DNA of 61,915 bases, counting the filler, from Kipferlia bialata (taxonomy: Eukaryota): assembly GCA_003568945.1 (NCBI GenBank). It is 3 parts of 3 records of this genome, joined end to end, with 100 filler letters (N's around TTAATTAATTAA, not from the genome) between each part and the next. Parts side by side here need not be neighbours in the genome. Positions count along the whole stretch, not along the records: positions 52,155 to 61,915 come from BDIP01000218.1; 2 more parts are not named here. One strand, given 5' to 3'. The notes beneath the pieces were generated by a model. That model had not been told where the DNA came from. It saw nothing but the letters and a program-made list of their open reading frames with translations, and searched no databases. The stretch's first letter is position 1. Each line of letters opens with the position of its first letter. A program made the translations under genes and the position numbers. Positions 59,146-59,732 of this stretch are shown one piece after another.

Positions 59146-59281
59146 TGATCATAGGCGATGCTGCCACTGTCATCCACCAGAGGTCTCTCTCTCTCTCTGT
59201 TCTCTTATTCACCTTCTCTCTAGCTATCTCTCTATTCTCTAATTACCCAGGCGATGTTGCCACTGTAATCCATCAGAGGTC

Positions 59282-59326
<45 letters not shown>

Positions 59327-59732
59327 CTCTCTCTTACCTCAGGAGATGTGGCCACTGTCATCCACCAGCGTTCATTAGGTAGTGGGTATAGAAGTACATC
59401 CGACTGGGAAGTGTGGACATATGACCCCCAGACTGATGCATGGAGGCACCATGTAGAGTGGGACATACACCCTCGGTTCGTGTCCAATCAGGTATCCCAC
59501 ATTCCTCTTCTTTTCTCTATGTATCTCTCTCTCTCTCTGTTAATTATGTATACTAGTACATGTTGCTATATCCCGTTGTGTATCCAATCATATAAGCTAT
59601 TCTTCTGTATTCACTTGTATCACCCCCCCCCCCTTATCCCAGTTCCCTGTCATGGATGTCCACCTCTCTCTCTCTCTCTCTCTCTACCACTATAAGTATT
59701 CAAACACATTCCCATAGTTCTCTTCCTCACTC

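Follow-up and report, generated by a model that had tools for sequence, protein, structure and literature searches.

Introns in the sequenced genome of the fornicate Kipferlia bialata analysed here often hold short, direct copies of the adjoining exon end together with its splice site, which we call echoes, and the echoes differ from the exons mostly at silent codon positions. The pattern is real, frequent and statistically solid. Recombination between diverged homologues, taken together with a closely related model of exchange with polymorphic alleles, is its probable source.

The window, a stretch of 61,915 nucleotides, consists of three K. bialata scaffolds joined by N-flanked 12-nt linkers (25980-26079 and 52055-52154) across which features should not be read; because the scaffolds are separate, it samples three loci. 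Self-comparison of the window revealed similar short repeats throughout. We curated seven gene models by coordinates, selecting genes in which repeats had already been seen (Table 1); four of the seven match annotated proteins across the echo-bearing region. The hydrolase corresponds to annotated protein g1430, the macrodomain protein to g1427 and ICMT to g1420, and the kelch exon is found in KIPB_001513/KIPB_006199 at 100%. Each exon end was aligned to its own flank, a score of at least 26 being required, and exon/foreign-intron pairs served as the control. At this threshold, 42 of the 177 exon-end/flank tests gave a match, compared with 0.47% of 7080 control pairs. The curated genes yielded 59 echoes of 13–70 nt, all on the same strand and located in the adjoining intron or the 3' flank. 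Echoes occur in 28 of the 85 introns of these genes and in 29 of 120 when four held-out genes are added (11 genes), the fractions of echo-bearing introns in the held-out genes being 1/3, 0/3, 0/16 and 0/13. The distribution is patchy by gene: six genes have echoes in 25 of their 49 introns and one gene in 3 of its 36, and the 32 introns of three others have none. The available text of the genome paper (PMC5874029) describes an Illumina/SPAdes assembly with 124,912 introns and takes the two peaks of the k-mer spectrum as a sign of diploidy; the words 'duplicat', 'allel' and 'synonymous' do not occur in that text.

Table 1 Echo-bearing genes of the window and the individual echoes of the kelch locus
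Feature	Position	Strand	Remarks
Dynein heavy-chain exon, two donor-side echoes	111..244	-	One Ser codon in three silent versions; spacer recurs as a repeat unit
ICMT gene, eight echoes in four introns	2349..3681	+	
Cyclophilin-like gene (named from the translation, by eye), nine echoes	8969..11719	-	Weakest silent bias of all sets
Small unnamed gene (held-out), three echoes	30642..31341	+	Includes a 78-nt post-stop copy
Macrodomain gene, sixteen echoes	31660..35441	-	Post-stop echo 31660-31690 covered by an RNA contig
Large 37-exon gene, three near-identical echoes	38498..39764	+	Rest of the gene echo-free
Nucleoside hydrolase gene, fourteen echoes	49241..51687	-	Four-copy array at 50971-51325
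Kelch exon 3	59343..59491	+	First 35 nt echoed; model identical to annotated protein P0001; Kelch_1 match
Focal 3' kelch echo, nearest to the exon	59251..59285	+	Own AG; 7 silent codon changes, 0 replacements
Second kelch echo	59155..59189	+	AG retained; one replacement
Third kelch echo	59053..59087	+	No AG; three replacements
Four more kelch echoes	59959-59988, 60034-60063, 60559-60573, 60738-60757	+	Stop in 60738-60757

Among the other predictions in the window, a gene at 4200-7640 is weakly predicted and lies outside the 11 genes counted. A predicted 3643-aa partial protein (13804-25907, minus strand) has 16 short introns free of echoes, and three large pieces of it gave no Pfam match. Echoes are likewise absent from a predicted ubiquitin-like plus GST-like fusion (44761-48217, minus strand) and a predicted homeobox-like gene (12448-13409, plus strand), both labelled by eye. 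An intronless 1091-aa ORF (54443-57718, minus strand) carries a P-loop-like motif recognised by eye and has no Pfam match; its guessed start was absent from the protein collection.

In the kelch gene (58308-60922), the focal echo at 59251-59285 and the exon at 59343-59377 both encode GDVATVIHQRSL (12 residues). The initial annotation had described seven changed codons here, all silent and including CGT/AGG, and the comparison bears this out, as the alignments do for the silent codon pairs that it listed in the dynein, ICMT, macrodomain and hydrolase echoes. The final two codons of the focal echo (S and L) overlap the start of a CT microsatellite; they probably belong to the copy, since another upstream copy spells S-L with different codons. 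Two contigs have an annotated copy of the kelch protein (GIQ80679.1 and GIQ84663.1), the second being identical over 366 aa.

Echoes are found on both sides of introns, 23 of the junctions being donor-side and 19 acceptor-side; 40 of the 59 extend exactly to the junction. All 19 downstream matches touch the exon 3' end and all 19 upstream matches touch the exon 5' end; inverted copies are absent (0/170) and copies in non-adjacent introns are rare (3/1654). The spacer between echo and exon measures 49–119 nt at 38 of the 42 junctions, shorter spacers being scarce, and the repeat period has a median of 96 nt (range 45–184 nt). Median intron length rises from 106 nt without echoes to 234, 295, 422 and 524 nt with one to four, so that each echo adds about 100 nt to its intron. 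Starts of echo-bearing introns are more AT-rich and TA-rich (0.73 vs 0.62; 27 vs 88 introns). Up to five versions of the exon end are present per junction, and 12 of the 42 junctions hold two to four distinct echo variants. The age gradient along arrays is weak (0.053 vs 0.071).

The spacer recurs as a true repeat unit at 7 of the 40 junctions tested, all seven in arrays, and is within background at the other 33. Of 17 echoes at least 96% identical to the exon, none is bordered by a near-identical 30-nt stretch of intron; intron flanks are on average above background similarity, yet mostly unalignable beside perfect echoes, and the similarity of the exon part is uncorrelated with that of the intron part. 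With regard to microhomology or templated insertion at the junction, which would mark duplications completed by TMEJ, the intron repeat pattern enters the echo edge further than in shuffles (0.86 vs 0.42 nt), a difference confounded by alignment extension. The donor of an echo often differs from that of the exon yet is consensus-like. Some echoes carry marks of decay, with stops in 3 and gaps in 6.

Echoes also follow stop codons, as at 31660-31690 and 31264-31341. The latter is a 78-nt copy of the last codons of the small gene, with one gap, one internal stop and five silent changes; the stop codon itself differs silently, several Ile/Leu/Val/Met swaps are present, and the copy reads like a more distant orthologue.

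Differences between echo and exon are distributed 45:22:105 over the three codon positions in the full set of 59. With one echo taken per junction, 41 of 779 non-degenerate sites differ compared with 51 of 203 four-fold sites, a ratio of 0.21 (0.18 after correction; bootstrap CI 0.12–0.25, with 0 of 5000 bootstraps at or above 0.5); for all 59 echoes, the counts are 66/1131 and 73/294. The ratio is 0.21 in frame compared with 3.5 and 1.7 in the shifted frames, falls to 0.14–0.18 when alignment ends are trimmed, and is 0.25, 0.19 and 0.20 on the individual scaffolds; the silent bias holds whichever gene is dropped. Transition or base-composition bias was rejected as the cause (base-standardised ratio, 0.20–0.22), as was alignment ascertainment (1.05 in neutral simulations).

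The initial annotation had proposed that the echoes derive from sequence under protein-level selection, with a pooled ratio near 1 as the neutral expectation. That null is too lenient: neutral decay of cis copies, simulated through the same aligner, gives 0.52–0.57, about 0.5 rather than 1 because the exon keeps gaining silent changes. The pooled ratio of 0.21 for the genes of this window is nevertheless well below the stricter value, with 0.209 or less reached in 1 of 1500 runs, and the proposal is supported. In 12 arrays, sites at which the exon differs from all echoes show the strongest silent bias (4/235 non-degenerate vs 10/58 four-fold), and sites variable among echoes are silent-biased as well (18/235 vs 12/58, P=0.007). 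The held-out small gene yields 13/86 and 5/17, a ratio of 0.51 that equals the neutral value and raises the pooled ratio to 0.245. In the cyclophilin-like set, pN/pS is 0.87 over all nine echoes and 0.28 with the nearest echoes only. A test for conservative replacements in echoes was not significant (P=0.14), and silent sites show no clear GC direction (26 vs 20).

From the conserved exon part, the partly changed silent sites and the barely alignable intron, we infer that echo and exon represent two diverged working copies of the gene. The explanation to which we lean is that they stem from homologues whose silent sites had already diverged by about 30%, joined by homologue-primed copying that was closed by end joining, with unequal exchange thereafter. 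A break near an exon edge would prime copying from such a homologue, exons being the sole good homology, and the copied tract, some 100 nt long, would extend over the splice junction. The new strand would fail to anneal to the other end because only 15–45 mismatched exon bases face unalignable intron, and end joining of the polymerase-theta type would leave the exon end and its splice site in two tandem versions, the echo being either the displaced old exon end or an imported new one. The survivors would be those products whose exon-proximal splice site still works. The intronic version would then decay slowly, and unequal exchange between exon end and echo would extend arrays, yielding repeated spacers and silent-biased members. 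This homologue-template model would account for the short one-sided echoes, their symmetry, the post-stop copies and the silent bias; flank discordance beside echoes of at least 96% identity is as expected between diverged homologues, unlike a fresh cis copy. Among the three sources named in the initial annotation, diverged alleles and former exon ends both fit, being one model seen from two sides, and continued use in transcripts is not supported; plain unequal crossing-over fits multi-copy arrays only and leaves the birth of single echoes unexplained, because repeated spacers are confined to arrays.

A fitted model with 0.30 silent divergence at birth, 0.03 decay and omega of 0.1 gives 0.250 and 0.045, compared with 0.251 and 0.053 observed, its parameters having been chosen to match the data, so that the agreement is not an independent test. 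The held-out gene (0.51), the cyclophilin-like set (0.87) and the kelch second copy identical over 366 aa count against the diverged-homologue model, and gene-level patchiness, the scarcity of spacers below 49 nt and the fact that no diverged haplotype is visible at present are outside its account. The strain may not be 30% heterozygous at silent sites at present, because a single contig carries each of the ICMT, hydrolase and macrodomain proteins and the two RNA contigs are near-identical to the true exon or UTR; fast intron turnover must also be assumed, because the flanks exceed the divergence expected from 30% silent divergence alone. Extant paralogues are not supported as donors: weak searches gave one match for the hydrolase (4 candidates) and one for the macrodomain protein (22 candidates), and the kelch paralogue P0002 (60%) lacks the echo peptide. 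In metagenome scans, the kelch protein was found in none of 82 candidates and the hydrolase in 3 of 78, at 35–37% identity.

As to the repair machinery, the available parts of PMC8516963 state that metamonads lack Ku and that fornicates lack Rad51A and use Dmc1; for K. bialata, the supplement has PolQ, Spo11, Msh2, Msh3 and four Dmc1 entries, with no Ku70 or Rad51A. The four Dmc1 entries, compared with two in most other fornicates (supplementary data 2), would be either fragmentary or doubled. Echoes show even silent divergence (chi-square/df 0.90), which leans, weakly, to one old divergence such as a hybrid; for the spread of allele ages, an exponential is mildly disfavoured (P ~0.02) and a gamma is not (P=0.16). 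As a tentative extension, the K. bialata lineage might have passed through a hybridisation, or a long period of allelic isolation, involving genomes with about 30% silent divergence. Thousands of introns across the genome would then retain exon ends of the lost partner, the coding sequence and recombination history of a vanished haplotype could be read from one genome, and intron growth in this species would be a side effect of repair between diverged homologues that proceeds without Ku and Rad51A.

The rival that survives best, rather unlikely in our view, is that the echoes are ordinary cis tandem duplicates whose resemblance to the exon is maintained by recurrent conversion from, or unequal exchange with, the exon ends of polymorphic alleles, an echo now and then taking the place of the exon end and thereby coming under selection. 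The recurrence of spacer and echo as a unit in arrays (7/40) speaks for it, recurrent refreshing is compatible with old flanks that no longer align beside perfect echoes, and the donor sequences of echoes have an identity of 0.71 at positions +3 to +6, compared with 0.43 at random. High allelic silent divergence is still required, however, because a ratio of about 0.5 results if the cis exon is the source of the refreshing, and the exponential spread expected of coalescence ages is the one that the data disfavour, unlike a gamma spread.

That the echoes are a second haplotype set in tandem by a short-read assembler, the outcome that the initial annotation thought might refute it, is improbable. 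The SPAdes assembly and the reportedly diploid genome would permit such an error, the median period of 96 nt is near typical read length, and no DNA contig of run X1 was placed on an echo at 30100-32280, although this may be an effect of filtering and is not evidence; this run has a word share of 0.99 on 36200-44000, perhaps because it comes from the source data, so it is not independent. The junctions with two to four variants argue against the error, as do the varying periods, and the stops, the gaps and the loss of AG in 8 of 24 acceptor-side echoes are unlike a working allele. Furthermore, of two contigs on 30100-32280 from run X2, taken as RNA by the tool's guess, the second runs without a gap from the exon through the stop and UTR into the post-stop macrodomain echo (31660-31765, with 31 letters on the echo side), a bridge over one echo in one independent library. 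The two contigs differ by 0 and 1 letters from the true exon or UTR; X2 did not cover the small gene, which is not evidence.

It is quite improbable that the echoes are cis duplicates of exons whose silent sites change faster than neutral, through escape from similarity to the echo or local hypermutation. The strong silent bias of sites separating the exon from all echoes would be explained, but the silent bias among echoes (P=0.007) and the unalignable spacers beside perfect echoes are left unaccounted for, and the GC counts give no clear direction.

We regard continued translation of echoes, whether as micro-exons or as alternative exon ends of some transcripts, as very improbable. Splice sites are often retained, with GT in 27 of 34 donor-side and AG in 16 of 24 acceptor-side echoes, some outscoring the site in use. 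No donor-side echo, however, has an upstream acceptor scoring above 5 (the true acceptor mean is 12.3), echo peptides are missing from four annotated proteins (predictions with RNA hints), and post-stop echoes show the same silent pattern. The first X2 contig (856 nt) runs out of the last macrodomain exon, passes over 400 nt that include four echoes, and has two mismatches to the nearest echo before running on in the sequence of the true exon, so that the transcript carries the exon letters. The exon-proximal site is thus used and the inner sites are silent in one intron by the RNA contig and in four genes by annotated proteins. AG is lost in 6 of 19 acceptor-side echoes compared with GT in 1 of 22 donor-side echoes (P=0.036), as expected if upstream acceptors are more harmful. 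A requirement for recursive splicing was rejected, exon ends in AG not being enriched (18/22 vs 53/64); the counts for starts in GT are 6/19 vs 13/66. The view that the echoes are plain cis tandem duplicates in neutral decay and that selective reading produced the silent bias agrees with the values for the held-out gene and the cyclophilin-like set and with the stops and gaps, but is hardly credible given the automated frame-controlled ratio of 0.21, matched in 1 of 1500 simulations, and is rejected for this window.

Some echo splice sites outscore those in use (acceptors, 18.1 vs 7.8, 12.0 vs 10.4 and 11.0 vs 6.3; donors, 10.8 vs 6.0 and 11.4 vs 6.5); these lie at 2452, 10162, 50682, 34295 and 38516, and the gene models skip all of them. 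In the large gene, the exon-attached copy at 39739-39937 lacks the acceptor AG, the upstream echo has a strong one, and the predicted substitute is an in-frame AG 24 nt inside the exon (39859), possibly an echo-driven shift of the splice site or a sequence error.

Single duplications across an exon–intron boundary are known; what is likely new here is a variant with silent-biased copies and a probable origin in recombination between diverged homologues. Gao and Lynch reportedly described, in 2009, internal gene duplications in which an intron end and exon start were duplicated. Our literature search, which covered few subscription journals, yielded no account of silent-biased junction echoes, in Kipferlia or elsewhere, and no genome with about a quarter of sampled introns holding boundary echoes with an orthologue-like silent signature.

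The closest comparison is IVS7 of human F7, which, according to the available text of PMC1557585, has a 37-bp minisatellite across the exon 7–intron boundary. There, too, the exon end and donor are repeated inside the intron, the inner pseudo-sites are silent and the outermost is used. The F7 repeat is, however, confined to one locus and the donor side and has near-identical units, whereas Kipferlia echoes occur on both intron sides and after stops, are present in 29 of 120 introns, have diverged mainly at silent sites and have spacers that mostly do not repeat. The Kipferlia junctions thus share with such tandem duplications the direct copy of an exon end with its splice site, placed in the adjoining intron, but not, outside arrays, repetition of the whole unit of exon end and spacer. 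A boundary-crossing tandem duplication in the potato RdRp gene (available text of PMC4974935) likewise duplicates an intron end and exon start, but a new intron arose there, whereas the Kipferlia copy remains inside an intron that was already present and that grows by about 100 nt per copy.

As to origin, the available text of PMC13031629 describes polymerase-theta-dependent tandem duplications from aborted homologous recombination, in which synthesis primed by homologous recombination is followed by disengagement and TMEJ to the non-invading end. The route proposed for Kipferlia would be the same, although those duplications come from repair mutants and the echoes are units of about 100 nt in a natural genome, apparently copied from diverged homologues. 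In hypervariable Schizophyllum commune, crossovers between 14%-diverged genomes favour exons (PMC4209137, main text), which resembles the proposed limitation of recombination to conserved exon sequence; the crossovers there are clean, and the word 'duplication' is absent from that main text. Kipferlia echoes are comparable to the F7 IVS7 repeat in splicing and likely to TMEJ-closed duplications in origin. Intron gain by AGGT duplication (the Rogers model) was rejected because echoes sit inside introns that have their own donor and acceptor, and duplicated cassette or mutually exclusive exons because the copies are partial (13–70 nt), one-sided and lack a strong upstream acceptor.

Sex and ploidy in fornicates are still open questions. 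If true, recombination between diverged homologues would provide sequence evidence for exchange between deeply diverged haplotypes in a free-living fornicate, turn echo-bearing introns into an archive of earlier recombination between distant lineages, and define a measurable route of intron growth, at about 100 nt per event. It would also offer a natural experiment in splice-site choice, with short introns bearing inner sites equal to or stronger than those used. These strong unused inner sites predict exon-side (cross-exon) definition in the reduced spliceosome (87/174 proteins; available text of PMC6679479). In practical terms, echoes mislead gene finders; an unconstrained gene predictor spliced them in as micro-exons.
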